Positions 19,623 through 49,229 of a stretch of DNA of 64,000 nucleotides are shown in pieces. Source of the stretch: Giardia intestinalis (lineage: Eukaryota); NCBI GenBank assembly GCA_000002435.2, contig CM018793.1, one strand, 5' to 3'. The position numbers were made by a program, and so were the translations under genes. Within the stretch, counting starts at the first letter, position 1; every line of letters starts with the position of its first letter. The notes beneath the pieces are model-generated. The model was not told the origin of the DNA. It did no database searches and saw only the letters and a program-made list of their open reading frames with translations.

Positions 19623-20145
19623 ATGGCTACTCTCAAAGACCTTCTGAACACCAATCCAATCGGCATGAGCGAGGAGAACTACGCGCAGCTGCTGCGCTCC
19701 CTCGAGACCCTCAACTACGGCCAGCTGCGCCAGTACGTGCTGGCCCGCCTCAAGCCCCTCGTCGACAACGTCCGCAAGCATCTCCAGGAGGACCCTGTCG
19801 GCTCGATCGACCAGGTCCTCGACTTCCAGGACGCCTTCTGCACCAAGGAGCTGATCCAGACCGTCCGCTGGAACCTCGCGCAGTTCCAGGTGAACGCGAA
19901 GAACCCCCGCAAGGCGCCGGCCGTGCGCAGCAAGGAGGCGACGGAGCTCTCGTACGCGACGGACTACAGCTTCCGGCGCATCGTCTACCCGATCGTCGCA
20001 GACCTCGCGAAGATCCTCTACCTCCGCGCCGAGGAGGCGAACGTCCGGAACCCGAACAGCCTCGTGCGCTACATCCCGCTCCTTATCATGTTCAACCAGC
20101 AGAACGCAATCGGCTACCCGCCCCGCGTCGCCTTCCTCGTGACGC
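19623..20145 (+). pseudogene. N-terminal 174-codon fragment of element-A pPolB, truncated by insertion of element B
   Basis: MATLKDLLNTNP...RVAFLVTP aligns residue-for-residue with residues 1-176 of the intact pPolB at 39160; reading frame runs into the TIR of element B after codon TP. Confidence 0.85.
20140..20145. repeat. Target-site duplication GACGCC (left copy)
   Basis: GACGCC immediately flanks both ends of the 26,015 bp insert; the uninterrupted paralogous pPolB has a single GACGCC at the corresponding site (cgtGACGCCtgccgtc). Confidence 0.8.
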
Positions 20146-20627
20146 CAGTAGTATATATCCTTGTGGTGCCCACTTTCGTTTTTTTGGGCCTGCACGGGGC
20201 TGGGCCCAAAAAAACGAAAGCGTCCCCCACAAGTGCGTCTGCGTGTGCCGGTCCGCCCACTAGGCTCCCACACGCTGGCGCTCGTTTACCTACTTTTCAA
20301 CAGAATAAAAAACCTGTAAATTTTCAAAAAAAATCGCGGCCTCCCCCCGGAACCGCCCAGCGTGGTGCCGTGCACGCCGGGAGGAGACCGCGTTGTCCTT
20401 GGATGTGTGTGATGCGTTCGCGCCCGGTTCAGCTGCCGGCCAGCCTGGTCTGCTCCCTGCCCCCGGGCCCGCACGACACCGAAGTGCGACATACAGACAG
20501 CCCGAAAGCAGAAAGCAGGCCAGCGTTATTTTTTTTTTCTGGGAGGCGGCAGTCAGGAAGTGCAAACCATTCTGACGAATTGATTCTGATCTGATTAATT
20601 GATTCAGGGCGGGGAGGAAAATAAAAT
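20146..20627. repeat. Element B left terminal inverted repeat; reaches the start codon of the first gene
   Basis: Exact reverse complement of 45680-46160; inner end GAGGAAAATAAAATATG supplies the promoter/start of ORF 20628. Confidence 0.85.
20172..20219. other. Conserved 18 bp-stem hairpin 26 nt inside the TIR tip (CTTTCGTTTTTTTGGGCC / GGCCCAAAAAAACGAAAG)
   Basis: Perfect inverted repeat with a 12 nt loop; present in all three TIR copies (also 46087-46134 and 52157-52204) with a different loop in the diverged copy. Confidence 0.7.
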
Positions 20628-21074
20628 ATGACGGATGAGCATTTGGGTGGCGGCGACGTTCAACCTGATAGGGACGATGGCGACGCTGGTGTGTCTGGGG
20701 ATAACGGCGTCGTCGTGCAAGAAGACAGCGTCGATCATGCAGGAGATCCTGGACAGACAGAAGGCCCGCCAACAGCAGAGCCAGCCACAGTACCAGCAGG
20801 CGCCGACTCCCCCGCTGTACCAGACGAGCCAATGGATGAGTCAGAGCTACTAGCAGAGCTCGCGTCTGATAAGATTACCATGCCGATGATGGTTATCACT
20901 ATGGGAGGAAGGTTCTTCGACTGCAAGGACGCTGAGCTCACTGTCACGATGAAGGTAAACGACGAGACGATGGAAGGATGCTATGTCTTGATTGGAGATA
21001 CTGTTCAGGAGGGGGAGGATGGAATAAAGTTAATGGGGTTGGTGTTCAAGCGCAAGGACGTGCCGGCAGAGTGA
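20628..21074 (+). CDS. Hypothetical acidic protein (148 aa), first gene of element B
   Basis: ORF starts exactly at the TIR inner end with AAAATAAAATATG; D/E/P-rich N-half. Confidence 0.45.
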   Translation: MTDEHLGGGDVQPDRDDGDAGVSGDNGVVVQEDSVDHAGDPGQTEGPPTAEPATVPAGADSPAVPDEPMDESELLAELASDKITMPMMVITMGGRFFDCKDAELTVTMKVNDETMEGCYVLIGDTVQEGEDGIKLMGLVFKRKDVPAE

Positions 21075-21076
21075 AT

Positions 21077-22543
21077 TCACTTGTAGAAGAGCTGGAAGAT
21101 GGGGGCCCAGTCGCCCTCTATCTTGGCAGAGAAGGGCCTTGCGTCGACAGAGCCGTCGGGGTAGGTGACTATGTGGTCTGCGCGGAAGTGTAACTTGTTG
21201 GTCGGCTTTTCCAGCTCGTGCCACGCCCAGAACAGCGGGTTGATGACTTGGTAGCGGTCGTGGATGCGGCGGGCAGAGACGATGGGATATCTCTCGTGGT
21301 ACTCTTTGCAGTAGAGGTTGATGCGGCTGTCCTTGTTATACCAGACATACGGCGGAATCTTTATGCGCGTTGTAGGAGAGATCGCCTCATAGAGCTTGAT
21401 AAGATCCGTCTTCCTGATGTGCCAGGCAGTGATAAAGTCTGGCGTTATCATTAGCATGGTTACCGTGGTCATCAGAACGAGATCGTCTCCATCTAACCAG
21501 GCCGCGATATAGGGACCGCTTGGGTTAGGCCCTATTTCTTTCAAGAAGTAGTTGTTGATGTATTTGAAGATGTTGACCATGGCGGTCTTAGTGATGACTG
21601 TTCCGCGGAGCGACAGGAAGTACGGGTCCTTGTGGGGGTAGAAGCGTCTGACCTTCTTGCTTGTTACCTCGATATATGCGTCTTTGCCATATTCGAAGGT
21701 GAAGGTCGGCTCAAGGAAGAAAAAGTCAGGGACGCTCAGCTTGGCGACGGGCGAGTGCAGGAGGATGGCATGAGGCTTTTCGAAACGAAAAAACCCCTGC
21801 TTCTTTTCGTGTTCTGCAGACTCCGTGATGAAGAGTTCGAGATAGACGGGAGCGAGGGTGAATGGGCGGTTGTTTTGGTCAAGGATCTCTATGTCGATGA
21901 TTCGGCCCTCATTGATGCGGTGGTTAACGGCGATGTGGGGGTTGATGAGGGAGAAGTTGTTTGTGATGTGCATAACGCCAATGCAGGCCGGCATTGTCAT
22001 GTTGGAGTCAGACGTGCCGCAGACGTTCTTGCAGATGATCTGGAGATACTTGAGGGTGACGGGAGGATAGGGGATGTCTGAGAGGAGGATGCTCCGTTCG
22101 CCTTGCGGAAGGTTTCGGGAGAATAGTTGCTTGGTGGTTCCGAAGCCAAGTGCCCAGGCAGCCGACGGAGAGAGGTTGAGATTTATGAAGTGGTTCTCTG
22201 CTGTGATTGCTTGTGTTAGTATGAAACGAACAAAGCCATCCTCGGTAATGTTTATTTCGACGTTAGCAGATATGCTGTGTGAGATCAGGTCAGCAAGGTT
22301 CTTAGCGACTCCGTCGAATTCGAATAACGTCTGGTTGGCGGTTACGTCGGTAATGTTGAAGGCGCCGATGCTGTCGAATATAGAAAGCGGGGAGTATGCG
22401 CTAACGAGACTCATATAGTGGCCTGTCGGATAGTGAGAGAGGATTTCGCGGATCTTGTTGCTGTATATCGCATGGTTTACGAGACCCTTTCCTATATTTT
22501 TAATTGTTATAACACCTGTCTGCTTTGTCTCGAGTCTCAGCAT
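21077..22543 (-). CDS. Hypothetical protein (488 aa); candidate virion structural (jelly-roll/penton-like) protein
   Basis: Beta-rich composition, lower GC, position in the structural module next to the packaging ATPase; start abuts AATTAAAAAATAATG; no motif-level assignment possible by eye. Confidence 0.35.
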   Translation of the reverse strand: MLRLETKQTGVITIKNIGKGLVNHAIYSNKIREILSHYPTGHYMSLVSAYSPLSIFDSIGAFNITDVTANQTLFEFDGVAKNLADLISHSISANVEINITEDGFVRFILTQAITAENHFINLNLSPSAAWALGFGTTKQLFSRNLPQGERSILLSDIPYPPVTLKYLQIICKNVCGTSDSNMTMPACIGVMHITNNFSLINPHIAVNHRINEGRIIDIEILDQNNRPFTLAPVYLELFITESAEHEKKQGFFRFEKPHAILLHSPVAKLSVPDFFFLEPTFTFEYGKDAYIEVTSKKVRRFYPHKDPYFLSLRGTVITKTAMVNIFKYINNYFLKEIGPNPSGPYIAAWLDGDDLVLMTTVTMLMITPDFITAWHIRKTDLIKLYEAISPTTRIKIPPYVWYNKDSRINLYCKEYHERYPIVSARRIHDRYQVINPLFWAWHELEKPTNKLHFRADHIVTYPDGSVDARPFSAKIEGDWAPIFQLFYK

Positions 22544-22555
22544 TATTTTTTAATT

Positions 22556-23500
22556 ATGCCGCTCGATCTCTCGCTCAAGACTGCGTCTACCAAGGACGCG
22601 CTCGAGTTCCGGGAGAAGCGCTTCCCGGTCTCGAACAACTGCTTCATCCCGATCGTGGGTGTGACGGGCTCTGGGAAGACGACGATCATCATCAACCTCT
22701 TCCGTCTTCTCAATGAGATCTACCGCTACAGCCACATCATCTATGTCGCCGCGAACTACCGCCAGGACGCGACGCTCAGGGCAGCGAACCTCACCCAGGT
22801 AGTTCTCGAGGACTACGTGGAGTTCGAGCAGGAGCGCGAGCATACGAAGCACGTCTACACGGCGAGCACCGATCTGCTGGACGTGGCCATCATGAAGATC
22901 TACGAGCTCCAGGACCTCCACGCGAAGGCCGAGGAGCTCCGGGAGCAGAGGAGGCAGATAGCGAGGGCGATCAAGATCGCGAAGGACCAGCAGCCAGAGC
23001 TCCTCGAGGACCTTGTTGCCCGCTACATCACAATCACCGAGGAGATCGACTCCATAGCGCCGACCAGCGACGGCACGCGTCCGAAGGTCCTCCTCGCCAT
23101 CGACGATAACTCGGGTGCCAAGGCCTTCAAGGTCAACTCTGAGAACAACCTTGTGTACCGCCTCATCAGGGACAGGAGACACCACAACACCTCTGTCCTC
23201 GCCTGCATCCACAACCTCAAGGCCTTCCACGCGCCCTTCCGCATGCATGCGACGGAGTTCATCTTCACGGCAGGTCTCAACAGCCAGGCGCTCAAGGATG
23301 TTTACGAGGACCTGGGGAACATCTTCCCGATCATCAACGAGAAGGCCCAGGACGGCACGAAGGCGTGCGACCTCTTCTGCGGGCTCTACGACAAGGTGAC
23401 GGGCGTCTACCCGAACGACGAGAGCCGCCGCTACTACTTCCTCACCGTCTTCCGTAACGCAAGGGAGCTCAGGGAGAACTTCGACACTGTCCTCAAGTAA
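22556..23500 (+). CDS. FtsK/HerA-superfamily (A32-like) genome-packaging ATPase
   Basis: Walker A IVGVTGSGKTTIIINLF and Walker B KVLLAIDDNSG (hhhhDD); ~315 aa from the ATG at 22556 (ORF track start 22418 overlaps the divergent neighbour). Confidence 0.55.
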   Translation: MPLDLSLKTASTKDALEFREKRFPVSNNCFIPIVGVTGSGKTTIIINLFRLLNEIYRYSHIIYVAANYRQDATLRAANLTQVVLEDYVEFEQEREHTKHVYTASTDLLDVAIMKIYELQDLHAKAEELREQRRQIARAIKIAKDQQPELLEDLVARYITITEEIDSIAPTSDGTRPKVLLAIDDNSGAKAFKVNSENNLVYRLIRDRRHHNTSVLACIHNLKAFHAPFRMHATEFIFTAGLNSQALKDVYEDLGNIFPIINEKAQDGTKACDLFCGLYDKVTGVYPNDESRRYYFLTVFRNARELRENFDTVLK

Positions 23501-23506
23501 ATAAAA

Positions 23507-23896
23507 ATGCGTGCTCACACCCAGGCGGACGACTACGGTCGCGTCTACACTGTCTCACACCTCCCCTCCTGCGCTGTCCTGCCGACGGGGTCTCCTCCGT
23601 ATGCGCCTCCCCGCGTCGTGCAGGCCTTCAAGGATCCCCTTGCCGGCACGCAGGTTCCCTTCAACTCGAAGAACGACCCGTCCGTGCACCGCATCGTGAA
23701 GGCCCGCCGCTTCGCCTCCCAGTCGAACCTCATCCCCCTCGACTGCAATAGCAACGCAAGGCACATCCAGGTCCCCATGCCCTCCAAGACCCTGACCCAT
23801 GCGATGGCGAAGCGCATCGACCCGTCACTCGCAGACACAAAGAGGCGCACCGCAAAGATGGAAGAGGCCAAGATGCGCATGCGCACGAAGAAGTGA
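23507..23896 (+). CDS. Small protein with basic C-terminus (129 aa); possible core/DNA-binding protein
   Basis: Start abuts GTAAATAAAAATG; C-terminal KRRTAKMEEAKMRMRTKK. Confidence 0.35.
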   Translation: MRAHTQADDYGRVYTVSHLPSCAVLPTGSPPYAPPRVVQAFKDPLAGTQVPFNSKNDPSVHRIVKARRFASQSNLIPLDCNSNARHIQVPMPSKTLTHAMAKRIDPSLADTKRRTAKMEEAKMRMRTKK

Positions 23897-23916
23897 ACTC
23901 CTAGGAAAAAAAAATA

Positions 23917-24462: not shown

Positions 24463-24478
24463 ATGAAAAAAAAAAATC

Positions 24479-27097
24479 ATGGCGATCGCCATTAACCCCG
24501 ATGTCCGCGAGCTGGACTTCAGCGACAACGTCAAGGTCTCGAAGTTCATGCAGGACTTCTCGGACTTCAGGGCGAAGAAGTGGATCACCTACAGGCCAGT
24601 GAACGCGCCCAGCGAGAGCGAGCCCTTCTTCGGGGGGACGAGACAGTTCATTATCAACATGGGCACGGGTCACATCCTCGACACAATGTATTCTGGGCTC
24701 TGGTTTGAACTTTACTTCCAGAATAATAGTGATGTGGTGTTGTGGCCTATACAGGCTTCTCTTCCTCGCACTTCTTCAGCTTGGATCGAGTCGGTGACGT
24801 TCCAGCATTCGAAGGTGGCAGCCCACATAGATGAACGCCTCTGCGATTACAACGCTGTCAGCACCATCTTTATTCCCGCGAAAGACATCCTCAGTATGAG
24901 GCAGACCTTTTTCACTACGGCAAATCAGCAGTTTGCAGACAATAATATGTTCAATGATGCCGTAGCCGATGATATATATGGCAAGCTTATGCCTGTAGGC
25001 TCGTTGACTACTTCTCGCATATCCCAACAAACCTTTTCTTTCTTCATCCCGCTTCGTTATTTATCAACCATCTTCAATTCAGGCAGATACTTCTTCCCAA
25101 GCCTGCTTCGCGGTAATGGTGAGATGACTCTATCTATTCGCTCTGTTGCTGCGTCTCTTTCAGAGGTGTTTGGTGGTTCTCGCAGTTCTATGGCCATTTA
25201 TATGAATCCTAATTTAAATGATTACCTTTGGTCAACTGCCGCTTCTGACAAAAAGATTAACTGGGATGTTTGTATGTATAATATGAAGTTAGTTACGCTC
25301 TGTCTCGATAACGCTTTTCTTACCAAAGAGTACAACGCCTTCATTGCCAGCGGCCGCAAATTTATTCGCTCTTTCAAAGCCTATAACTACCAGTTCTACC
25401 AGGTCAAGCAGGGTTATAATCGAATTGAGATAGCGAACACCCATCAGTCGATATCGCACATTGTTCTTGCGTTCCAGGTGCCGTATTCTGTACGCGTCGA
25501 TGGTCGAGCTATTTCGATGATGGATAATCAGTCATTTGGTATTCAGAAAACAACAGCGGGCACAACAAGCCAAACGATTAATGCCAAGAACCAGGGCGCA
25601 TTTGTTCCGACACGAGCAAGACCTTCTATGACAGGTCACGCCGGTAATAATTATCAGCCAGCGCCAGACAACCCGTACATTTCAGCATCAAGTCCAAACC
25701 CTCCTTCTGGTACTCGCGCATTTGGTAGAAAGGCGTTTGATCTTGGTACTAGTATAATGTGCAAGATATGGGATAGTGCTAAAAATCTGAACTGGTCATT
25801 TTTAGCACAACCGACTCTTGCCCTTGCGGCCAGTGGCCTTCCTAAGTCAGTACAACCTCTCGTAACAGCAACAGCCAATATGTTAGTTCAGAGTTCCTTG
25901 CAAAGCGCCACTAGAGCTGGAAGTGTTAAAAGACCTGCGCCGAGAACGTCCCAAGAGAATGATTTGTTAAAGCTTCAAAGAAATAATGCCCAAAGCCTAG
26001 CTAGAGGTTTTATGGATCCAAAGAATCGTGATGTTATAGGGACGTTTATTGACGAATTTAACAAATCGACAGGCGGTACTCTTGGAATAACCGAATTTAA
26101 TGCTATAGCACATCAGTTCCTAACTATGAATAATGCCAAAAGTAATTTAACACAAAAACAAAAGGATGTTTTTACAGATCTTATGAATATGAAGAAACTT
26201 GATCCTGTCTCAATTAACTTGATAGCTTATTATGCAACAGATGATGAGAGTGGTCCGTCAGCCATCACCAATGACCAAGTGAAGAATTATCTTTTGAAAC
26301 ACAACATAGATGAAGCTGACATAGATGAGGTGACCGATATTATAGCACGTCATAATTTAGAAACGGCAGGGGTATCTGTCTCCCAGGGAAGACTTGCTTT
26401 AAACGGTTTGGAAATAGATACCAATACCCAGAAAGTCGTTGCCGAGACCATGGATCGAATATTCGGAAGCGATGATACGTTAAAGACTGCCTTTACTGAG
26501 AGTCAGAAGACGTACTTGGCAAAAATTCTCGCAGAGCTGACTGACCAGAACCACTTGGATCATCACAAGTTCTTTACGCAAATGTTCCCCGCCGAGCCAA
26601 AGCAACTCTTTGATCTCGGCATGCACGTTATCGAGAACCTTCAGGTGTACCGCGGGACCGGTAACGGTGAGACGGTCTTTTCAGAACCAATTAACGGAGA
26701 CATGTTCTACCACATAAGTAGGGAGGCAATGGGCGATTCTGCTGAGAACCATCCATTTTTCAGTCTTGAGAATTTCAACAAGGACATGGCAGTAATTGTA
26801 ATTAGTCTCAACACTTTCATGCGCGACGCTCACCACGAGTTCTGGGACGGGTTCAGCACGAACCGCGTTGCTGATCGTCTCTATGTGGAGTTCAATAATG
26901 AGGAGTTTGTCATTCCGGATCTGTCTAAGATTCAACCTTGGTTTGATGATATCGGTTACCAGGATAATTGTATCGGCCTAGACTGCAAGGTCTTCACGAT
27001 CTACGACAACATCTACTTCATCGACCGCGACAACAACCTGAACGTGTCCGACACGCTCCTGCCCCTCCAGGAGGGCCGCATTCCTGGGTCTGACTGA
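24479..27097 (+). CDS. Large N/S/T-rich protein (872 aa); candidate major capsid protein
   Basis: Largest structural-module ORF, immediately upstream of the integrase, start abuts GAAAAAAAAAAATCATG; the capsid assignment is inferred from position and size only. Confidence 0.35.
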   Translation: MAIAINPDVRELDFSDNVKVSKFMQDFSDFRAKKWITYRPVNAPSESEPFFGGTRQFIINMGTGHILDTMYSGLWFELYFQNNSDVVLWPIQASLPRTSSAWIESVTFQHSKVAAHIDERLCDYNAVSTIFIPAKDILSMRQTFFTTANQQFADNNMFNDAVADDIYGKLMPVGSLTTSRISQQTFSFFIPLRYLSTIFNSGRYFFPSLLRGNGEMTLSIRSVAASLSEVFGGSRSSMAIYMNPNLNDYLWSTAASDKKINWDVCMYNMKLVTLCLDNAFLTKEYNAFIASGRKFIRSFKAYNYQFYQVKQGYNRIEIANTHQSISHIVLAFQVPYSVRVDGRAISMMDNQSFGIQKTTAGTTSQTINAKNQGAFVPTRARPSMTGHAGNNYQPAPDNPYISASSPNPPSGTRAFGRKAFDLGTSIMCKIWDSAKNLNWSFLAQPTLALAASGLPKSVQPLVTATANMLVQSSLQSATRAGSVKRPAPRTSQENDLLKLQRNNAQSLARGFMDPKNRDVIGTFIDEFNKSTGGTLGITEFNAIAHQFLTMNNAKSNLTQKQKDVFTDLMNMKKLDPVSINLIAYYATDDESGPSAITNDQVKNYLLKHNIDEADIDEVTDIIARHNLETAGVSVSQGRLALNGLEIDTNTQKVVAETMDRIFGSDDTLKTAFTESQKTYLAKILAELTDQNHLDHHKFFTQMFPAEPKQLFDLGMHVIENLQVYRGTGNGETVFSEPINGDMFYHISREAMGDSAENHPFFSLENFNKDMAVIVISLNTFMRDAHHEFWDGFSTNRVADRLYVEFNNEEFVIPDLSKIQPWFDDIGYQDNCIGLDCKVFTIYDNIYFIDRDNNLNVSDTLLPLQEGRIPGSD

Positions 27098-27112
27098 GTG
27101 AATGGAATAAAA

Positions 27113-28141
27113 ATGGCGCTGCTCTCTGCGAAGGGCCCGGGCTACGTCGAGATGGACCTCGTCTACGTCAAGGACGGGGGCAGGGAGGAGAAGTACTTCG
27201 CGGCGGTCGAGGCGTTCTCGCGGCTCTGCTTCGTGCGGCAGCTCCCGGACCGGAAGGCGGCGAACCTCGTCCCGGTCGTCGACGAGATGCTCACGCACTT
27301 CAAGGCGAAGAGCGTCCGGGCGGACATGGAGTTCTCGGCGTTCGAGATCCTCAACCTCTTCGAGCGGCGGAGGGTCAAGGTCGACCTCGTGCCCTTCGAG
27401 GTCAGGGACTACTCGCGCCTCGCCACGATCAACCGCTTCTGCCGGTCCCTGCGCCACTACCGGATGAGCGGCGTCAAGCCGGGGGACATCGAGAAGCACC
27501 ACAACCGGGAGAAGCCGGACCACTACTACCCGCACAAGTGCACGGCGGACGTCACGTACGAGGAGAACGTCGCGGTGATGAACGCGAAGCACCGGAAGGG
27601 GATCCTGCCGCTCCGGGGCGGGCCCAGGGCAGACGCGGGCCAGACGGTCCACGTGCGGCTCCTCAAGGACGGGAAGTTCGACAAGGAGCGGCCGAAGTGG
27701 TCCCGGGCGCGGTTCCGGGTGCTCGGGGTCTTCCAGGGCCGCTACGCACTGTGCCGGGAGGGCGACAAGAGCGGCAACGTCATCCTCCGGCGCTTCAACG
27801 AGGTCGCCCCGGGGAGCAAGACGCACACGTACGCGGACGACCACGTCGAGGAGAGCAACCTCTACGTCGTCAAGCGGATCGAGGAGTGCACGGACCGGAA
27901 GAGCAACCCGGTCAGGACGCTCGCGGAGGCGAACAAGATGGACTGCTGGTACCGCGTGCGGATGCTCGACGACAGCCAGGTCTGGGTGACCGCGAACCAG
28001 GTCCGCTTCCAGTCGAACGAGCCGACGGCGGCGGAGCGGCGCTTCTTCGGGGAGAAGGCGGCCGACAAGCTCACCGTCATGCGCGCGACGAAGGAGGAGC
28101 TCGCTGCGAGCAGGAGGAAGTTCCCAGTAAATAAAAAATGA
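27113..28141 (+). CDS. rve-like (retroviral-type DDE) integrase, possibly DDN variant
   Basis: VEMDLVYV...YFAAVEAFSRLCFVRQL...SVRADMEFSAFEI...RLATINRFCRSL aligns with the retroviral IN core (WQVDFTH...VAVHVASGY...TDNGSEF...G.VERFN.TLK); third acidic residue appears as N; start at the ATG after GGAATAAAAATG. Confidence 0.45.
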   Translation: MALLSAKGPGYVEMDLVYVKDGGREEKYFAAVEAFSRLCFVRQLPDRKAANLVPVVDEMLTHFKAKSVRADMEFSAFEILNLFERRRVKVDLVPFEVRDYSRLATINRFCRSLRHYRMSGVKPGDIEKHHNREKPDHYYPHKCTADVTYEENVAVMNAKHRKGILPLRGGPRADAGQTVHVRLLKDGKFDKERPKWSRARFRVLGVFQGRYALCREGDKSGNVILRRFNEVAPGSKTHTYADDHVEESNLYVVKRIEECTDRKSNPVRTLAEANKMDCWYRVRMLDDSQVWVTANQVRFQSNEPTAAERRFFGEKAADKLTVMRATKEELAASRRKFPVNKK

Positions 28142-32607: not shown

Positions 32608-32702
32608 CTGAACGGGACTTTTTCTCTATTTGCAATTTCAATTTAAAATGCTTCTCCGACGTTTATTATCCCTATACTCGTCAATATAGTGTAAATAAGA
32701 AA

Positions 32703-33191: not shown

Positions 33192-33201
33192 ATTGCACCG
33201 T

Positions 33202-36205: not shown

Positions 36206-36213
36206 TGAATTTA

Positions 36214-39090: not shown

Positions 39091-39159
39091 TATTTATTTT
39101 CCCCACTCACACCAACCATTTGAAAGTGGAATCTGTTCTGAGAAAATAAAATGACGTAA

Positions 39160-42100
39160 ATGGCAACCACTAGGGAACTCCTGACCATGCATCCCCAGCA
39201 GATGTCCGAGGACCAGCTCGCCCAGCTCAAGACGTCGCTCGAGACGCTCAACTACACCCAGCTCCGACAATACGTGCTCGGCCGCGTCAAGCCCCTCATC
39301 GAGAACGTCCGCAAGCACATCCAGGAGGACCCCGTCGGCTCGGTAGATCAAGTCCTCGACTTCCAGGACGGCTTCTGGTCCAAGGACCTGATCCAGCGCG
39401 TCCGCTGGAACCTCGCCCAGTTCAGGGTAAACGAGAAGAACCCCCGCAGAGTGCCGACCAGCAGAGCGAAGGAGGCGCTGGAGCTGAACTACATGACCGA
39501 CTACTCCTTCCGGCGCATCGTCTACCCGATCGTCGCAGACCTCGCCAAGGCTCTTTATCTCCGCGCAGAGGAAGCTAACCGCCGCAACACCGACGCTTCG
39601 GTGCGCTATGTCCCGCTTCTTGTCATGTTCAACCAGCAGAACACGTTCGGCTATCCGCCCCGCGTCGCCTTCCTCGTGACGCCTGCCGTCATCACGTTCC
39701 TCCGCGGATGGAAGGTCTTCGCCGACGGAGACGACGCCCACCAGCACTACCTCAACGCGGTCACGAGGGACGCGGCGCAGATCCACGGCGTCCAGTCCGC
39801 AGAGCCTGGCGAGATGCTCTACTGCTTCAACTGGGACCCCATTTTCGCCGGCACAGAGAGCGACCCCGAGAACCCCCGCAACGCCATGTTCTCCTTCGGG
39901 ACGATGTACGAGCCCGTCTTCATCTTCCAGATCCAGATCATCCGCACCAGAGAGGGCCAGCGGAAGCTCATCCACCGCAGGGGAGGTATGGCGCCCTTCA
40001 CGAACGACTCGTTCTTCGACCTCACGCGCTACCAGATCGAGAAGACAGGCGAGGGCTTCAAGAACAGCAAGGACACGTGTTTCCTCTACGCCCTCAAGCA
40101 GAGCGGCGTGCTGAGCGACGACGAGATACGGGCCGCCGCCTTCCACATCAACCAGGCCTCTGTCACCTTCGCGATGATCGACGCCATCGGCAAGCAGCTC
40201 TTCGTCTGCTTCCACATGCACATGGCAGACAGGGTCGTCCTCAAGGGCGCGCAGAAGAACCGCAAGGTTCCGCCGGGCGTCGCGATCCGGAACATCCACC
40301 TGGGCTTCGACTTCAACCACTACTACATCTTCGACGAGAAGCTCCCCTACAGCAAGACGTACGTGAACAACGCAGCCGTCATGATGGAGCACCACACATA
40401 CCCCGCGAACACGAACCTGCGCGAGGTCAACGTCAGAGACACCTTCCACCCGCAGACCAGGGAGCCGACGAAGAAGGTCGTCTTCGGCTACCACCGCGAC
40501 GACGACCCCCATACATGCTCGAGTCGGGACCTCATCCTCTCGCTCCACAAGCAGGGCCTCCTCAAGCCCATCCGCTCCGACAGCCTGCTGGCCATCAAGG
40601 AGTCCTTCATCCGCGAAGAGCACTACGAGGAGGACGCGCTCAACTACTGCGAGGACCAGCTGAAGGAGATCACGCCGAAGAAGAAGACCCAGTCGCCCAA
40701 GGACGTCTGGTTCGCAGACTTCGAGACGACGACCGACGGGGACCAGCACCACCCGTTCCTCCTCTGCTTCCACGGGATCAACAACGTCACGGGGACGTAC
40801 TGGGCGAAGGACTACAACAGCATCGGGGACATGGTCCGAGCGGCCTTCAACCGCCTCGCGATGCTCAACCGGCCCCAGCTGGTGTACTTCCACAACCTCA
40901 ACTACGACGGGGCCTTCGTCCTCCCGTACTTCGACGTCAAGAAGGACAGCATCGTCACCCTCGGGGCGAGCAAGATCATCGCGTTCACGATCCATGTCCG
41001 GCTGAGCGACGACCGGAAGAACAAGCCGATCCCGATCCACTTCCGGGACTCCTACGCCCTGATCACGGCTCCCCTCAGCAAGTTCGGCAAGATGTTCAAC
41101 CTCAACGTGCACAAGGAGGTCCTCCCGTACTCGTTCTACACCCAGGACAACGTCAAGAAGCTGTGCCAGGGCTTCAAGCCGACGCTCGAGGAGTACCTCT
41201 CGTACGAGATCGAGAGCAGGAGGGAGGAGCTCGAGCAGCTGCTCCGTACGCTGCCGGAGATGCTGGTAATAGACAGGGTCGACGCCTTCAAGTACGCCCA
41301 CTACTACTGCGCAAGAGACTGCCACGTGCTCAAGGACGGGGTGATGGGCTTCAGACGCCAGCTCCTCGAGGTCACGGGCATCGACGCCTTCACATCCATG
41401 ACGCTCCCGAGCATTGCCTACAACTTCCTCATCAACGAGAAGTGCTTCGAGGGCTGCTTCAACCTCAACACGGCGCCGCTCCTCTTCGTACGCCAGTGCG
41501 TGACGGGCGGGCGCTGCATGCTCCGGTGCAACGAGAAGCAGTACGTCGAGGGCGAGGTCATGGACTTCGACGCCGTCTCGCTGTATCCGTCTGCCATGGC
41601 GCGCCTCCACACCCTCATGGGCCACCCGAAGATCGTCGACCCCGAGAAGCACGACCTCGGCTGGCTCCTCCGGCAGGACGGCTGCTTCCTCGAGATCGAC
41701 ATCGAGGTCGTCCCGAAGCAGCTCGACTTCCCCCTCATCAACAGGCAGACGGAGAAGGGGAGGCACTTCTCGAACGAGCCGGGCCCGATGTTCGCCGACA
41801 ACATCACGATCGAGGACATCATCGAGTACCACAAGGTCCCGATGAACCGGATCAGGGTCCTCCGGGGCTACTACTACGACGAGGGCAAGAACACGAACAT
41901 CCAGGCCGTCATCCGGAAGATCTTCGAAGCGCGGCTCAAGTTCAAGGCGGAGGGCAACCCGCTCGAGAGCATCTACAAGCTCATCATGAACAGCTGCTAC
42001 GGGAAGAGCATCCTCAAGCCCGTCTACAAGCGGATGAACACGGTCGACCACGCGGGCCTTGAGAGAGAGCTCCTCGACAACTCGGCCGATGTCCTCTGCT

Positions 42101-42756
42101 GGGAGCCGCTCTACGACGGCGGCCGCTTCCTCCTCAAGCAGAGCAAGCCCCTTCTGGAGGCGAACAGCTTCCCGACGTTCGGGGTCCAGGTGCTCTCGAT
42201 GAGCAAGCGCATCATGACGGAGGTGATGGCGACGGCCCAGGACCACGGGCTCCCGATCTACTACACAGACACGGACAGCATCCACATCGACAAGGCGTCC
42301 ATCGAGCCCCTCCGGAACTACTTCCACGCGCGCTTCCAGCGGGAGCTCATCGGGAAGAACCTCGGCCAGTTCCACTCAGACTTCCCCGACAGCCCCTCCG
42401 GGGAGATGTTCGTCAGCCGCTACTTCATCGGCGTCGGCAAGAAGGCATACCTCGACATCCTCCAGGACAGCCAGAACAACATGAGCTACCACGCGCGCCT
42501 CAAGGGCATCCCCGAGCAGGCGATCCTCAACGAGGCCCGGCAGCGCTGCTCCCACAACTTCCTCGGCGGGCTCTACAACCTCTACGCGGACCTCTACAAC
42601 GGCGTGCCCCAGACCTTCAACCTCATCTACGACGGCGCGGTGCGCTTCGTGCGAGACGCCAGCCTCGCCTACCGCTGCAGGGACGACTTCAAGCGGAGAG
42701 TCATCTTCGAGAGGGAGCCCGATGAGCCCCTGAACATATCAAAGCTGATGCAGTAA
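39160..42756 (+). CDS. Protein-primed family B DNA polymerase (pPolB), 1198 aa, with ~520 aa N-terminal extension (putative terminal-protein region)
   Basis: Exo I FADFETTT; Exo II YFHNLNYDGAFVL (phi29 YFHNLKFDGAFII); Exo III YAHYYCARDCHVL; motif A FDAVSLYPSAM (phi29 DVNSLYPAQM); motif B KLIMNSCYGKS (KLMLNSLYGKF); motif C YYTDTDSIH (YCDTDSIH). Confidence 0.9.
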   Translation: MATTRELLTMHPQQMSEDQLAQLKTSLETLNYTQLRQYVLGRVKPLIENVRKHIQEDPVGSVDQVLDFQDGFWSKDLIQRVRWNLAQFRVNEKNPRRVPTSRAKEALELNYMTDYSFRRIVYPIVADLAKALYLRAEEANRRNTDASVRYVPLLVMFNQQNTFGYPPRVAFLVTPAVITFLRGWKVFADGDDAHQHYLNAVTRDAAQIHGVQSAEPGEMLYCFNWDPIFAGTESDPENPRNAMFSFGTMYEPVFIFQIQIIRTREGQRKLIHRRGGMAPFTNDSFFDLTRYQIEKTGEGFKNSKDTCFLYALKQSGVLSDDEIRAAAFHINQASVTFAMIDAIGKQLFVCFHMHMADRVVLKGAQKNRKVPPGVAIRNIHLGFDFNHYYIFDEKLPYSKTYVNNAAVMMEHHTYPANTNLREVNVRDTFHPQTREPTKKVVFGYHRDDDPHTCSSRDLILSLHKQGLLKPIRSDSLLAIKESFIREEHYEEDALNYCEDQLKEITPKKKTQSPKDVWFADFETTTDGDQHHPFLLCFHGINNVTGTYWAKDYNSIGDMVRAAFNRLAMLNRPQLVYFHNLNYDGAFVLPYFDVKKDSIVTLGASKIIAFTIHVRLSDDRKNKPIPIHFRDSYALITAPLSKFGKMFNLNVHKEVLPYSFYTQDNVKKLCQGFKPTLEEYLSYEIESRREELEQLLRTLPEMLVIDRVDAFKYAHYYCARDCHVLKDGVMGFRRQLLEVTGIDAFTSMTLPSIAYNFLINEKCFEGCFNLNTAPLLFVRQCVTGGRCMLRCNEKQYVEGEVMDFDAVSLYPSAMARLHTLMGHPKIVDPEKHDLGWLLRQDGCFLEIDIEVVPKQLDFPLINRQTEKGRHFSNEPGPMFADNITIEDIIEYHKVPMNRIRVLRGYYYDEGKNTNIQAVIRKIFEARLKFKAEGNPLESIYKLIMNSCYGKSILKPVYKRMNTVDHAGLERELLDNSADVLCWEPLYDGGRFLLKQSKPLLEANSFPTFGVQVLSMSKRIMTEVMATAQDHGLPIYYTDTDSIHIDKASIEPLRNYFHARFQRELIGKNLGQFHSDFPDSPSGEMFVSRYFIGVGKKAYLDILQDSQNNMSYHARLKGIPEQAILNEARQRCSHNFLGGLYNLYADLYNGVPQTFNLIYDGAVRFVRDASLAYRCRDDFKRRVIFEREPDEPLNISKLMQ

Positions 42757-42762
42757 ATTTAC

Positions 42763-43794
42763 TTAGCGCTCCATAATCTCCTTGAACCTCCCAAAGGTTA
42801 GAGGCTCAGCATTGAAGAACTTCTTCTTCCTTGCCCACGCAGAGAGACGATCGAAGAAAGCCTCAGACGATATCTGCTTGTCCCCAATGGTAAAGCTGTA
42901 ACGACGATCATGATACTCATCAATATCGAACCAGGCGTCTGTGATCGCAAACTGACGCGTAACAGCAGCTGCCTTTATCAAACAGTACTGGCCACCGCTC
43001 CATATGGTTCCCACATGACCCGGCTCTATCGCGACAACTGGGTTGTAAATGCCCTTATGCTCGAGGAGGAACTCGTTCGTCTGCCTGATCGTGTCAAGCG
43101 CATCGACCTCGCACAGACGATGAGGATCATCCGAGGCCCTGTCCTTGATGTGGTCCTCACAGACAGCCGGGTCGATAGCGAAGCGCACATGGAAGGCCGG
43201 AAGGATGCCTGCGCGGAGCATGTAGTGGTCGATCAGGTAGTGGAGGTACTGGCCTTGCTCCTTCGTGATGTAGCCGTCACTCATCTTGAAGAGGATGAAC
43301 GCGCTAGTAGACGGCAGCCAGCGGTCGAAGATGATGAAGTCGTACTGCTGATACTCTTCGGCAAAACGGCAATGAAGAAGCTGCTTCCCCAGTGCATGGA
43401 CCACCTGCTCCTGGAACTGGAAAGCAAGCTCCCTGGGGTTCTTGTAGTACTCCTCGAGGGTGATGCCTCCGTTCTGTCCAAAGTGGTTGTCTGCCACGGC
43501 CTCCTCGATGATGGTAGCTTCGAAGCCTTGGTCGATCAGGTACTTCTTGAGATGCTTGCAGAAGGTGGACTTGCCTGCGCCGATGGGACCGTCAACAACG
43601 ATGATGCGAGGATCAATGACAACAGGCGGCACAACTCTCGAACTGAAATCGCTGAGCTTCCATACGAGGTTATCGTCCATGTTGATCCCGATGTCAACTG
43701 ACTCCAGAAAGTCTTCGACTGGCCAGTGTGATGATTTACTATCGATGAGGCCTGGCTCAGCTGGCTGGTTCTGGGGCTCGTAGTACTGGCTCAT
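42763..43794 (-). CDS. P-loop nucleoside/nucleotide kinase (thymidylate kinase / deoxynucleoside kinase family)
   Basis: IVVDGPIGAGKSTF P-loop and FDRWLPSTSAF (DRY/ERS-type motif, DRYxxSxxAY); ORF trimmed to MSQYYEPQ, whose ATG abuts GGGAAAATAAAATG. Confidence 0.55.
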   Translation of the reverse strand: MSQYYEPQNQPAEPGLIDSKSSHWPVEDFLESVDIGINMDDNLVWKLSDFSSRVVPPVVIDPRIIVVDGPIGAGKSTFCKHLKKYLIDQGFEATIIEEAVADNHFGQNGGITLEEYYKNPRELAFQFQEQVVHALGKQLLHCRFAEEYQQYDFIIFDRWLPSTSAFILFKMSDGYITKEQGQYLHYLIDHYMLRAGILPAFHVRFAIDPAVCEDHIKDRASDDPHRLCEVDALDTIRQTNEFLLEHKGIYNPVVAIEPGHVGTIWSGGQYCLIKAAAVTRQFAITDAWFDIDEYHDRRYSFTIGDKQISSEAFFDRLSAWARKKKFFNAEPLTFGRFKEIMER

Positions 43795-43867
43795 TTTATT
43801 TTCCCAGTAGTGCACGTCTCAAGAGCCAAACCATTTTAAAGTGAATTCTCCCCACGGAAATAAAAGT

Positions 43868-44122
43868 ATGGCTGGCCACCTTCTCAACAGCAACGGGACC
43901 GCGAAGAACGAGAACAAGCTCTACACCCAGAAGCCGACGCCCTTCTACGACGCGGGCACGGTGCCGGTCCGTCTGTCCTCGGTACCCTTCGAGAGCCGCA
44001 ACGAGCCGATCCGCGTCCAGATCGACGAGCCGCCCAAGCAGCGCCCGCGAGCTGGTCTAGTGCGCACCCGCAAGAGGATGATCCCGAGGAACCGCTGGAA
44101 GAGGAACGGGAACAAGCAGTAA
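43868..44122 (+). CDS. Small protein with Arg/Lys-rich C-terminus (84 aa); candidate DNA-binding/core protein
   Basis: MAGHLLNS...LVRTRKRMIPRNRWKRNGNKQ; start abuts GAAATAAAAGTATG; orthologue at 50366-50617. Confidence 0.45.
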   Translation: MAGHLLNSNGTAKNENKLYTQKPTPFYDAGTVPVRLSSVPFESRNEPIRVQIDEPPKQRPRAGLVRTRKRMIPRNRWKRNGNKQ

Positions 44123-44126
44123 ACGT

Positions 44127-44723
44127 TTACTTCGAGATCTCCTCGAGGAAGCGGTTGAAGGTGTTCGTCTCGGTGGAGGCGTTGAGGAAGCGCTGGATGC
44201 CGTCAGCCCACGCCTGGGCGCTCTCGTCGCTGATGCTGAGACAGGTGGCTGTGTACGTGCGCTTGTTCTTGGGAAGCCTCGAGAGCCTCACGAACTCGTC
44301 TCCGGTCTCCTCGTAGAGATAGAAGGCAGAGCGTGCTCCATCAGAAGCGCGTCTGCAGAAAGCGGTGTAGTGAGGGGCTTGCACGAACTCGTCCTCGGGT
44401 CGCTTGACGAAGCGGAAGACGACGCCCTGCTGGTTGAGCCACTTGCAGAACCAGGAGGTGACTCGCTGATAGTCCTCAGTACCCTCAGCGCACTCTGCGG
44501 TGACTCGACCGAGCAGTCTTCCGACCTGGCCGCAAAAGGACTTAAACGCGGGACTGGACGGGGCGGGAGGATTTGCCACTGGCAGAACGGGCTCGGCGTC
44601 GGCGGTCTGTCGCTGTCGGGTTCTAGAGGCAGACTTCCTATGAGTGGGCTCTCTGGAGGAAGGAATGACATCTTGAAGGAAGGGGTCCTCGGCGAAGTGC
44701 TCTGGTATGAATCCATCTGCCAT
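44127..44723 (-). CDS. Hypothetical protein (198 aa), conserved in A and B
   Basis: Start abuts GGAAAATAAAATAAGCATG; conserved core FKSFCGQVGRLLGR.TA.CAEGTEDY.RVT.WFC.WLNQ.GV.FRFVKRPEDEFV.APHYTAFCRRASDG.RSAFYL.EETG.E.VRLSRLPK. Confidence 0.5.
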   Translation of the reverse strand: MADGFIPEHFAEDPFLQDVIPSSREPTHRKSASRTRQRQTADAEPVLPVANPPAPSSPAFKSFCGQVGRLLGRVTAECAEGTEDYQRVTSWFCKWLNQQGVVFRFVKRPEDEFVQAPHYTAFCRRASDGARSAFYLYEETGDEFVRLSRLPKNKRTYTATCLSISDESAQAWADGIQRFLNASTETNTFNRFLEEISK

Positions 44724-44839
44724 GCTTATTTTATTTTCCTGGGAGCCCTGTAACCAGATCAGATCAGAATTGATTCCTGATCAATTCGGACGAAGCGACG
44801 ACTCCAGAAAAAAAAATAACGCTGACGTGAATTCGATGT

Positions 44840-45679
44840 TTACTTTGCAAACAGCTTTACGATGTCTTCCTTGTCTCCGGCAATGGCCAACGCAAAAACC
44901 CTACCATTATTGATGTCCTTCTCCTTATCTGCCAACAAAGCAGCACAAGCAGCATGGCCATTTCTCACAGCCCACTCGAAAGCAGTACCACGGGCGTTAT
45001 TGCATAACCTGGCCTCCTTATCTAACAACAGCTTGACGATGTCTGCGTAACCACAGGATGCTGCTAGCATGAGAGCGGTCCAGCCGTCGTTATCCTTCAT
45101 GCCTGCCTCCTTCTCCGCTAATAGGTTAGCGCACTTAGTGTGACCCTTACACGCAGCCCACATGAGAGCAGTCCTACCATCTTTATTCTTCATGCCGGCC
45201 TCCTTCTCTAACAACAGCTTAACGCTGTATGCGGAATCCTTGGATGCTGCTATTATGAGAGCCGACCCGCAGCATCTCGCACATATACCGGCCTCCTTCT
45301 TCACTAGCAGGTCAACGCACTTAAAATTAAACTTACTCACAGCCCACATGAGGGCGGTCCTACCGATGACATCCTTCATACCAGCCTCCTTCTCTAACAG
45401 CAGCTTAACGCAGTCTGTATAGCCTTCGGATGCTGCTATCATGAGAGCCGTCAAGCCGTGTCCATCACTCATACCAGCCTCCTTCTCCACTAGCAGGTTA
45501 GCGCAGTTAGTATGACCCTCCCTCGCAGCCCACATGAGGGCAGTCCAGCTGTTGAAATCCCTCAGGCCAGCCTCCTTGTCTACTAGTTCCCTGACGACAT
45601 CGATGTTACCTTGCGCTGCTGCTTCTATGAGATCCCTAAAACCATATCCTGGCGACTTGTATTCTCGATAAGCCTTCAT
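44840..45679 (-). CDS. Ankyrin-repeat protein (8-9 ANK repeats), last gene of element B
   Basis: Repeated G.TALM.AA..GH...V.LLLEKEAG..D units; start codon sits exactly at the inner end of the right TIR (GGAGGAAAATAAAATATG). Confidence 0.8.
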   Translation of the reverse strand: MKAYREYKSPGYGFRDLIEAAAQGNIDVVRELVDKEAGLRDFNSWTALMWAAREGHTNCANLLVEKEAGMSDGHGLTALMIAASEGYTDCVKLLLEKEAGMKDVIGRTALMWAVSKFNFKCVDLLVKKEAGICARCCGSALIIAASKDSAYSVKLLLEKEAGMKNKDGRTALMWAACKGHTKCANLLAEKEAGMKDNDGWTALMLAASCGYADIVKLLLDKEARLCNNARGTAFEWAVRNGHAACAALLADKEKDINNGRVFALAIAGDKEDIVKLFAK

Positions 45680-46160
45680 ATTTTATTTTCCTCCCCGCCC
45701 TGAATCAATTAATCAGATCAGAATCAATTCGTCAGAATGGTTTGCACTTCCTGACTGCCGCCTCCCAGAAAAAAAAAATAACGCTGGCCTGCTTTCTGCT
45801 TTCGGGCTGTCTGTATGTCGCACTTCGGTGTCGTGCGGGCCCGGGGGCAGGGAGCAGACCAGGCTGGCCGGCAGCTGAACCGGGCGCGAACGCATCACAC
45901 ACATCCAAGGACAACGCGGTCTCCTCCCGGCGTGCACGGCACCACGCTGGGCGGTTCCGGGGGGAGGCCGCGATTTTTTTTGAAAATTTACAGGTTTTTT
46001 ATTCTGTTGAAAAGTAGGTAAACGAGCGCCAGCGTGTGGGAGCCTAGTGGGCGGACCGGCACACGCAGACGCACTTGTGGGGGACGCTTTCGTTTTTTTG
46101 GGCCCAGCCCCGTGCAGGCCCAAAAAAACGAAAGTGGGCACCACAAGGATATATACTACT
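45680..46160. repeat. Element B right terminal inverted repeat
   Basis: Exact reverse complement of 20146-20627; ends ...CACCACAAGGATATATACTACT then TSD. Confidence 0.85.
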
Positions 46161-46166
46161 GACGCC
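46161..46166. repeat. Target-site duplication GACGCC (right copy)
   Basis: See 20140-20145. Confidence 0.8.
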
Positions 46167-49100
46167 CGCCGTCATCACGTTCCTCCGCGGCTGGAAGGTC
46201 TTCGCAGACGGCGACGACGCGCACCGGCACTACCTCAACGCGGTTACGAAGGACGCGGCGCAGATCCACGGCGTCCAGTCTGCAGAGCCCGGCGAGATGC
46301 TCTACTGCTTCAACTGGGACCCGGTCTTCGGGGGCACTGAGAGCGACCCCGAGAACCCCCACAACGCGCTCTTCTCGTTCGGGACGATGTACGAACCCGT
46401 CTTCTTCTTCCAGATCCAGATCGTGCGCATGAAGGATGGCCAGCGGAAGTTCATCCACCGGCGCGGCGGCCTGGCCCCCTTCACGAACGACTCGTTCTTC
46501 GACCTCAACCGCTACCAGATCGAGCGGACAGGCGAAGGCTTTCGGAACAGCAAGGACACGTGCTTCCTCTACGCTCTCAAGCAGAGCGGGCAGCTGAACG
46601 ACGAGGAGATCAAGGCCGCGGCGCTCCACATCAACCAGGCGGCGGTCACGTTCGCGATGGTCGACGCGATCGGCAAGCAGCTCTTCATCTGCTTCCACAT
46701 GCACATGCCGGACAGGGTCGTCCTCCGGGGCGCACAGAAGGGCCGCAAGCTCCCGCCCGGCGTCGCACTCCGGAACATCCAGATAGGCTTCGACTTCAAC
46801 CACTACTACATCTTCGACGAGAAGCTCCCCTACAGCAAGGCGTACGTGAACCACGCGTCCGTGATGATGGAGCACAACGCGTACCCGGAGAACGCGAACG
46901 TCCGCGAGGTCAGCGTCCGGAACACCTTCCACCCGGAGACCCGGGAGCCGATGCAGAAGGTCGTCTTCGGCTACCACCGCGACGACGACCCCCACACGTG
47001 CACGAGCCGCGACCTCCTCCTCTCGCTCCACAAGCAGGGCCTCCTCCGCCCGATCCGCTCAGACGACCTCCTCGCCGTCAAGGAGTCCTTCATCCGCGAG
47101 GAACACTACGCGGAGGACAACCTCGAGTTCTGCGAGAACCAACTCAAGAAGATCGAGCCCAAGAAGAAGCAGGCCCCGCCGAAGGACGTCTGGTTCGCGG
47201 ACTTCGAGACGACGACCGACGGGGACCAGCACCACCCGTTCCTCCTCTGCTTCCACGGGGCGAACAATGTGACGGGGACTACTGGGCGAAGGACTACACA
47301 GCATCGGGGACATGGTCCAGCGGCCTTCCCGCCTCGCGACCTCAACCGGCCCCAGCTGGTTACTTCACAACCTCAACTACGACGGGGCCTTCGTCCTCCC
47401 GTACTTCGACGTCAAAAGGACAGCATCGTCACCCTCGGGGCGAGCAAGATCATCGCGTTCACATCCACATCCGACTGAGCGACGACCGGAAGAACAAGCC
47501 GATCCCGATCCACTTCCGGGACTCCTACGCCCTGATCACGGCGCCCCTCAGCAAGTTCGGGAAGATGTTCAACCTCGACGTCCACAAGGAGGTCCTCCCG
47601 TACTCGTTCTACACGCAGGAGAACGTCCGCAAGCTCGCAGAGGGCTACCGGCCGACCCTCGAGGAGTACCTCTCGTACGAGATGGAGAGCAGACGGACCG
47701 AGCTCGAGCAGCTGGTCCGCATGCTGCCGGGGATGCTCGTCGAGGACCGCGTCGATGCGCTCCGCTACGCCCACTACTACTGCGCGCGGGACTGTCACGT
47801 GCTCAAGGAGGGCGTCCTCCGCTTCCGGCAGCAGCTCCTCGAGGTCACCGGGATCGACGCGTTCACGTCCATGACTCTCCCGAGCGTCGCGTACAACTAC
47901 CTCATCAACGAGAAGTGCTTCGAGGGCTGCTTCAACCTCAACACGGCTCCGCTTCTCTTCGTGCGCCAGTGCGTGACGGGCGGGCGCTGCATGCTCCGGA
48001 ACAACGAGAAGCAGTACGTCGAGGGCGAGATCATGGACTTCGACGCGGTCTCCCTGTACCCGTCCGCAATGGCGCGCATCTACACCCTCAAGGGCCACCC
48101 GAAGGTCGTCGACCCCGAGAAGCACGACCTCGGCTGGCTCCTCCGCCAGGACGGCTGCTTCCTCGAGATAGACATTCAGATCGTCCCGAAGACCCTCGAC
48201 TTCCCCCTCATCAACCGCCAGACGGAGAAGGGCCGCCACTTCTCAAACGAGCCAGGCCCGATGTTCGCGGACAACATCACGATCGAGGACATCATCGAGT
48301 ACCACAAGGTCCCGATGAACCGAATCCGCGTCCTCCGGGGCTACTACTACGACGAGGGGAAGAACTTCGCCATCCAGACCGTTATCCGGAAGCTCTTCGA
48401 TACGCGCCTCAAGTTCAAGGCGGAGGGCAACCCCCTTGAGAGCATCTACAAGCTCATCATGAACAGCTGCTACGGGAAAAGCATCCTCAAGCCCGTCTTC
48501 AAGCGGATGAACACCGTCGACCGGGCCGGGCTCGAGCGGGAGCTCCTCGACAACTCCGCCGACATCCTCTGCTGGGAGCCGCTCTACGACGGCGGCCGCT
48601 TCCTCCTCAAGCAGAGCCGCCCGCTCCTCATGGCGAACAGCTTCCCGACGTTCGGCGTCCAGGTCCTCTCGATGAGCAAGCGCATCATGACGGAGGTGAT
48701 GGCAACGGCCCAGGACCACGCGCTCCCGATCTACTACACGGACACCGACAGCATCCACATCGACAAGCGGTCAATAGAGCCGCTCCGGAACTACTTCCAC
48801 GCGCGCTTCCACCGCGAGCTCATCGGCAAGAACCTCGGCCAGTTCCACTCGGACTTCCCCGACAGCCCCTCCGGCGAGATGTTCGTCAGCCGCTTCTTCG
48901 TCGGCGTCGGCAAGAAGGCGTACCTCGACATCCTCCAGGACAGCCAGGGCCACATGAGCTACCACGCGCGCCTCAAGGGCATCCCCGAGCAGGCGATCCT
49001 CAACGAGGCCCGCCAGCGCTGCGCCCAGAACTTCCTCGGCGGGCTCTACAACCTCTACGCCGACCTCTACAACGGCGTCCCCCAGACCTTCAACCTCATC

Positions 49101-49229
49101 TACGACGGCGCCGTCCGCTTCGTCCGCGACGCGCACCTCGCCTACCGCTGCCGCGACGACTTCAAGCGCCGCGTCATCTTCGAGAAGGAGCCCGACGCGC
49201 CCCTGAACGTCGTCAAGCTCATGCAGTGA
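46167..49229 (+). pseudogene. C-terminal ~1020 codons of element-A pPolB, separated from its N-terminus by element B and carrying several frameshifts (~47270-47470)
   Basis: Resumes at ...AVITFLRGWKVF exactly where 19623-20145 stops; nucleotide comparison with 40741-41030 shows at least six 1-3 nt indels, so the ORF track splits it into 46075-47478 and 46560-49229 in different frames; downstream motifs (KLIMNSCYGKS, YYTDTDSIH) intact. Confidence 0.85.

Follow-up and report, generated by a model that had tools for sequence, protein, structure and literature searches.

A polymerase gene in two halves

The locus described here raises the question of how the polymerase gene of a virus-like element came to be split into two halves that now lie 26 kb apart. 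It is contained in a window of 64,000 nucleotides (nt) of Giardia intestinalis DNA (contig CM018793.1, assembly GCA_000002435.2), for which an earlier note, made from the sequence alone, had proposed that one element, here called B, sits within the pPolB gene of A, an older relative. We find that B very probably represents a complete and young insertion in the pPolB gene of A, that A itself is a remnant and that the nest most likely owes its existence mainly to survival in dispensable foreign DNA.

A tblastn search with the B polymerase placed its residues 1–175 at 19623–20147, residues 165–610 at 46135–47463 and residues 545–1198 at 47274–49226. Together with translation and alignment this defines a 5' part of the A gene at 19623–20146 (plus strand, residues 1–175) and a 3' part at 46167–49229 (plus strand, residues 176–1198), the latter equalling XP_001707491.1 outside a short tract of indels that is treated below. 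When both parts are joined, the rebuilt gene has 1198 codons, shows 87.5% nucleotide identity to the B gene at 39160–42756 and aligns across the junction without a gap. The comparison of the two genes that the earlier note had suggested as a check thus finds the halves contiguous in pPolB coordinates. The insertion point falls into codons 173–175. In the earlier note an open reading frame (ORF) at 19623–20145 was said to encode residues 1–176 and to stop there; it is indeed the N-terminal part of a pPolB, but comprises residues 1–175, the codon for Pro175 spans the junction and the frame continues to 20594. Resumption of the frame at 46167 was confirmed, as it follows directly on the second GACGCC with an Ala codon starting at 46168. 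Overall, the coordinates given previously are correct to within one base or codon.

Element B occupies 20147–46160 (plus strand; 26,014 bp) with the termini AGTAGTATATATCC...GGATATATACTACT. Its ends read AGTAGT...ACTACT and so have the 5'-AG...CT-3' form of Polinton/Maverick elements. The terminal inverted repeats at 20147–20631 (plus strand) and 45676–46160 (minus strand) are each 485 nt long and 100% identical to one another. Sequence and empty-site alignment identify the flanking GACGCC copies at 20141–20146 and 46161–46166 as a target-site duplication. The chance of finding a matching 6-mer at both sides is about 1/4096, and here it coincides with exact restoration of the reading frame and with perfect 485-nt inverted repeats. 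At the corresponding point the pPolB gene of B itself is uninterrupted and has one GACGCC, as previously stated for the intact paralogue. An empty site is found in a metagenomic contig from a relative of A (L018, ENA ERZ19219916), which is continuous at this place: its positions 6137–8620 correspond to 17664–20146 and its positions 8614–9248 to 46160–46797, and the homologous target position holds a single copy, GACCCC. With the repeats, the 6-bp duplication, the gap-free reconstruction and this empty site the proposed nesting of B in the gene of an older relative is upheld, and the order of events, A and then B, is sound.

We infer that the integrase of B would have joined the two AGTAGT ends to staggered chromosomal cuts 6 bp apart, which would account for the duplication of GACGCC; the target would simply have happened to be the polymerase gene of A. 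The insertion appears to be young, since the B repeats are identical, the B genes are open and the split A gene is free of stop codons and frameshifts outside one disputed tract of 184 nt.

The ORF that runs across the left junction (19623–20594, 323 aa) is identical in the 2007 (XP_001707467.1) and 2020 (KAE8305689.1) records of isolate WB, and the left junction is therefore not specific to one assembly. In the reference annotation this ORF is GL50803_92663 ('hypothetical protein', 323 aa), a chimera of residues 1–175 of the A polymerase and a read-through into the B repeat. That two separate loci carrying A and B were misjoined through their similar polymerase sequence is very improbable. 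Polymerase sequence is common to both elements, assemblers could be misled by the perfect inverted repeat of 2.28 kb close by, and the order of accessions hints at differing orientations of the interior in the 2007 and 2020 assemblies. The joins are nevertheless located at the termini of the B repeats and outside the shared polymerase sequence, both of them carry the 6-bp duplication, the left junction ORF is the same in the Sanger and the PacBio assembly, and a relative has the empty site.

A conserved hairpin (CGTTTTTTTGGG...CCCAAAAAAACG) was observed about 30 nt inward of every terminus of the family: at 20176–20217 and 46090–46131 in B, at 52163–52204 in A, at 16744–16781 in another element of the family (L001) and at 12209–12246 in the copy from P15 (L039). 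It may be a site recognized by the integrase or in protein priming. The terminal sequence itself is the same on the remaining end of A; it reads ...ACTACT in L001 and ...ATTACT in the P15 copy.

A tract of deletions in the A polymerase gene

The earlier note had further proposed that the A polymerase decayed after the arrival of B and had acquired at least six small indels at 47270–47470. A cluster is indeed present there; in the alignment with B we count nine deletions amounting to 10 nt at 47280–47463 (plus strand). All nine lie inside 184 nt; insertions are absent, as are indels in the remainder of the gene. If the ten bases are restored, an ORF of 1198 codons without internal stop results. 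The 2007 gene model from the same isolate, XP_001707491.1 (980 aa), is clearly copy A, agreeing with it in 327/327 residues upstream of the tract and in 586/587 downstream, and is in frame across the tract. Two residues of the restored tract differ from this model (M/T and V/I). The 2007 and 2020 assemblies thus disagree over the tract. Of the missing bases, 3/10 lie in homopolymer runs and 6/10 are G. The deletion tract is also the only stretch in which A and B are 96–99% identical, whereas A is nearer to another lineage (L004) elsewhere in the gene. In addition we noted that a tract resembling gene conversion between the nested copies (47177–47540 against 40694–41109) overlaps the deletion cluster.

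Genuine decay, in which the nine deletions are real mutations accumulated after insertion of B, is in our view the less probable reading, though one with several points in its favor: the deletions exist in this assembly, their small share of homopolymer positions and the six missing G are unlike the classic PacBio homopolymer error, and the substitutions in the tract with respect to B (M/T, V/I) are absent from the 2007 model, the consensus of which could have borrowed reads from B. Nevertheless, that model keeps its frame across the tract and otherwise equals A, and nine neutral deletions within 184 nt of a 3.6-kb gene, accompanied by no insertions and by no stops elsewhere, do not resemble gradual decay. 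The coincidence with the near-identical stretch of A and B rather suggests a problem of mapping or polishing or a single event linked to conversion, and frameshifts induced by PacBio sequencing are reported in the description of the 2020 assembly, where correction was limited to positions with 50% support from 10 or more Illumina reads (PMC7000408). One possibility that would combine the near-identity with the clustered 1-nt deletions is mutagenic gene conversion between the nested copies.

Short-read contigs of the neighboring genes end before the tract, as such contigs break at k-mers common to A and B. An exact look-up of XP_001707491.1 in the assemblies returned no record, and the hypothetical intact and truncated products were not in the collection. 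A scan of JGI metagenomes with a DNA pattern of the indel tract gave no match. Thus, apart from the insertion, the lesions of the A polymerase amount to ten bases in one tract that is in frame in the 2007 model, and the proposed later decay is unproven. As 3.4 kb of the split gene carry no other lesion, we favor a recent insertion over visible decay. The neighboring A genes are intact, as previously described: the ORFs for the kinase, the 98-aa and the 202/216-aa proteins are open and 100% identical in Illumina contigs from at least 20 samples.

Gene content of element B

The genes of B were placed on the basis of gene calls in two relatives (L016 and L039), and all of them are open. The pPolB gene at 39160–42756 (plus strand) is intact and encodes 1198 aa with a PF03175 match over residues 569–974 (E 5e-37); its exact database match is XP_001707488.1/KAE8305704.1, a 'putative DNA polymerase'. 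Next to the left repeat lie a gene for a penton (minor capsid) protein of 488 aa (21077–22543, minus strand), comparable to the penton of Polintons, and a gene for an A32-type packaging ATPase of 314 aa (22556–23500, plus strand), which matches PF04665 with E 8.9e-6 and 25.8 bits at a cut-off of 22.8, as do 5/5 homologues. A 322-aa ORF at 22550–23518 on the minus strand had been considered as the ATPase and was rejected by the gene calls of the relatives, since it is antisense to the actual gene. Together with a 1093-aa ORF at 39094–42375 (minus strand) it illustrates that long antisense ORFs extend over real genes in this GC-rich DNA.

The 872-aa protein encoded at 24479–27097 (plus strand) is a candidate major capsid protein without Pfam match. 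Within this gene the GC content is 43%, compared with about 60% in the rest of B. The P15 copy (L039 5288–8059) shows 90% identity to B near the integrase, compared with 47–51% in the 872-aa and penton proteins, a contrast in sequence that points to modular recombination between lineages. The adjacent gene (27098–28141, plus strand) encodes a putative DDE (rve-like) integrase. Its match to PF00665 (E 6e-4, 20.4 bits) is below the Pfam cut-off of 32.6; a homologue (P0060) has a precomputed match to the same family. A profile search of the PDB gave no matches to the putative integrase, and neither did Foldseek with an AF2 model of pLDDT 50.6.

The remaining part of B contains genes for a RING protein (32008–32607, minus strand), an 809-aa protein without Pfam match (33776–36205, plus strand), a 958-aa coiled-coil protein with weak coiled-coil matches in Pfam only (36214–39090, minus strand), a deoxynucleoside kinase (42763–43815, minus strand) and a 279-aa ankyrin protein (44840–45679, minus strand). 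Tandem repeats of 93 nt at 45012–45582 correspond to the ankyrin repeats of the latter. Among the B ORFs scanned no Pfam protease family was matched. Cas1 gave no match in the B ORFs scanned either; with a duplication of 6 bp, compared with about 14–15 bp for casposons, and a eukaryotic host, B does not class as a casposon.

Because it combines a pPolB, a putative integrase with a weak rve match, an A32-type ATPase, a penton, a 6-bp duplication and AG...CT ends, B is a complete Polinton/Maverick-like virus element. It was probably active recently.

Element A and the surrounding nest

Element A is homologous to B only across B positions 32011–46160. What remains to the left of the split gene (11904–19622, plus strand) comprises a 171-aa ORF, a RING protein, an 824-aa protein and a 1005-aa coiled-coil protein and was delimited by comparison with a complete relative (L017). 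In this relative the left module consists of an 869-aa protein, the integrase and a 767-aa protein, and homology to A starts at about 11904. A has thus lost its left 11 kb or so including the left repeat, and has no integrase/capsid module. The left repeat was not found when the window was searched with the terminal 14-mer and all flanks were compared with the A right repeat by Smith-Waterman alignment. An Illumina contig (L033) is 100% identical to the left part of A. The right part (49230–52230, plus strand; from sequence comparison and Illumina contigs) holds the kinase, the 98-aa ORF, the 202/216-aa ORF and the right repeat, which ends in ...GGATATATACTACT at 52230.

Relics of a third relative were found on both sides of A. 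A 127-nt fragment of a RING gene at 52231–52357 (minus strand; about residues 40–82) abuts the right end of A (E 2.6e-6 with a hidden Markov model of the family; alignment score 6–7 standard deviations over shuffled sequences). A relic pPolB fragment of this third relative, C, with residues 517–600 lies at 11410–11617 (minus strand), and a copy of its residues 570–600 at 52358–52444 (plus strand), both detected by tblastn. The whole nest of B within A is bracketed by an inverted duplication with a left arm at 9219–11496 and a right arm at 52358–54635, each 2,278 nt long and 100% identical to the other. Relic sequence from inside a repeat lies in the arms, beside the fragments of the third polymerase. 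GL50803_5183, a host gene conserved in isolate DH, has its true 3' end (last 71 codons) in the left arm, and the right arm is therefore the copy. The earlier account of A was sound as far as its open genes are concerned and incomplete in that A itself is a stump and that the third relic and the 2.28-kb duplication at the flanks had gone unremarked.

Illumina contigs from at least 20 samples match both the right end of A with its flank (49082–52387) and the region of the left breakpoint (to 11467) with 100% identity, so that the inner junctions are real; each of these contigs ends 30 nt into an arm. The order of protein accessions suggests that in the 2007 scaffold the opposite flank was joined to the left side of A, so that the interior of 40.8 kb may be able to invert, or assembly may have produced both arrangements. 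At 11618–11903 a stretch of 286 nt separates the left breakpoint of A from the relic polymerase fragment and has no match in the window or in the fetched loci. Region 1–9200 was considered as a third element and rejected, as it contains host genes (Rad3 helicase, MsrB, ALG13-like, DUF4485). The genes flanking the nest match proteins of WB (ATCC 50803) exactly, among them Rad3 helicase XP_001706782, delta-giardin XP_001707449 and tubulin cofactor XP_001707450.

Distribution of the family

Among 5.8 billion proteins we found 12 clusters of pPolB homologues, all from Giardia records or from metagenome and SRA assemblies; only one of these clusters is from annotated Giardia WB. Scanning the viral and JGI collections with the polymerase gave no match. 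The family is thus rare. Short-read contigs of the relatives end within the repeats. The P15 copy (L039, ACVC01000209.1) has its terminus at position 12276 with the flank GACAAC, and copies take different positions in WB and P15. The sequence adjoining its terminus (L039 12277–21317) contains a kinase-like gene and the proteins GLP15_2177/2178, which bear the UniRef name 'Major capsid protein', have no Pfam match and are unrelated to the A and B proteins. This cluster may belong to another, second family of virus-like elements integrated in Giardia. At the left end of the L001 element (L040 12240–12480, ENA ERZ27273410 contig_803) the repeat hairpin is the turning point of a fold-back into an inverted copy, with the terminal 25 nt or so missing; this would be either a long-read fold-back artefact or a tail-to-tail dimer. 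On account of this palindromic fold-back it was not used as a further element end.

Why the elements are nested

All three junctions known from G. intestinalis (3/3) adjoin foreign, virus-like DNA. We consider it most likely that, in this compact genome, insertions persist chiefly where the DNA is dispensable and of foreign origin already; a weak preference for certain target sequences may add to the survival bias. The earlier note had asked whether the elements instead integrate preferentially into resident relatives, be it because certain target sequences are preferred or because the integrase is tethered to proteins or chromatin of the element. Such active self-targeting is rather unlikely in our view, and survival bias, perhaps together with a weak preference, is the more likely explanation, although several observations can be read in favor of targeting. 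For a random hit on a target of 14–25 kb, given a genome of 12.6 Mb (size from PMC7000408), p is about 0.001–0.002, the right end of A lies in a gene fragment of a relative, the end of the P15 copy adjoins a different virus-like gene cluster and every polymerase copy found for WB is at this one locus. The flanking hexamers GACGCC, GGCGTG, GGCCTC and GTTGTC each fit at least 3/4 positions of a palindromic G-N-C-G-N-C, a pattern that was recognized post hoc in four sites. Against this, no single homing site emerges, as one landing point is in a polymerase gene, another in a RING gene and a third in unrelated virus-like DNA; the polymerase site is uninterrupted in B itself and in L018 (there GACCCC), and the flank of L001 is unrelated to the family. 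The sample is tiny, and selection in a compact genome would by itself predict the same pattern. No tRNA genes, which might have served as targets, turned up in a scan.

Less likely still is a broader scenario, in which the family integrates preferentially into resident relatives and other integrated virus DNA by way of a G-N-C-G-N-C preference or chromatin tethering, newcomers disable incumbents and the family is confined to one or a few nests. If true, this would amount to competition between elements or to self-limitation of copy number in a Polinton-like virus.

Several points weigh against a young B insertion that survived in a dispensable remnant. Agreement between the assemblies covers the left junction only, and short-read contigs break inside the repeats near the right junction. 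As the left end of A is gone, a target duplication of A is beyond verification. The integrase assignment in B is weak, with a Pfam match below threshold, a pLDDT of about 50 in the AF2 model and no counterpart in the PDB, and survival bias as the cause of nesting is something we infer.

Significance and comparison with known systems

Among human parasites Giardia is a major one, and its genome is small and densely packed with genes. It was reportedly thought, by Arkhipova and Morrison in 2001, to have only few retrotransposon families. A Polinton-like element that is intact over 26 kb would offer a candidate for a DNA virus or mobile vector in this parasite, and genetic work would gain a natural tool. 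The nest is also a clean, datable case of one element inactivating the polymerase of another, and its restriction to one locus makes the target choice of a Polinton-type integrase testable in a genome small enough for a complete survey. Finally, the locus exposes problems in the reference annotation, as GL50803_92663 is chimeric and the two reference assemblies disagree over the A polymerase region.

B resembles Polintons/Mavericks in its pPolB, long inverted repeats, AG...CT ends, 6-bp duplication, A32/FtsK-type ATPase and penton. Duplications of 5–6 bp are cited for mavirus and Maverick/Polinton elements (PMC8547959), and a Giardia polymerase already stands with those of Polinton type in a tree published earlier (PMC4642659, Fig. 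6). Apart from this polymerase in a tree, we found no description of the structure, ends or nesting of the Giardia element in the literature. Polintons are usually 15–20 kb long (PMC3511435), compared with 26 kb for B. B further differs from them in that its integrase is only weakly rve-like and that no protease was found with Pfam, and it exceeds their gene set with a host-like deoxynucleoside kinase, an E3-like RING protein, an ankyrin protein and a coiled-coil protein of about 1000 aa.

Nesting of mobile elements in integrated viruses has been described. Ngaro retrotransposons lie preferentially inside EMALEs of Cafeteria, the integration of which is without sequence specificity (PMC8547959), and retrotransposons are nested in Polinton-like viruses (PLVs) of cryptophytes (PMC12220804). 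As in the Giardia locus, EMALEs and algal PLVs are integrated virus-like elements with repeats and short duplications that are themselves targets of mobile elements. There, however, the intruder is an unrelated retrotransposon, whereas here a member of the same family has entered the polymerase gene of its relative. EMALEs are mavirus-like virophages, and we know of no giant-virus partner for Giardia.

DIRS-1 of Dictyostelium and the nested long terminal repeat (LTR) retrotransposons of maize provide cases of new copies inside older kin, with a readable chronology and clusters of relics. These are retroelements in repeat-rich regions, in contrast to the DNA virus-like element described here, which is found in a gene-dense genome of 12.6 Mb and apparently in one nest. 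Nested transposon insertion as such is already known, and B adds to it a well-preserved new Polinton/Maverick-like element in an important parasite.

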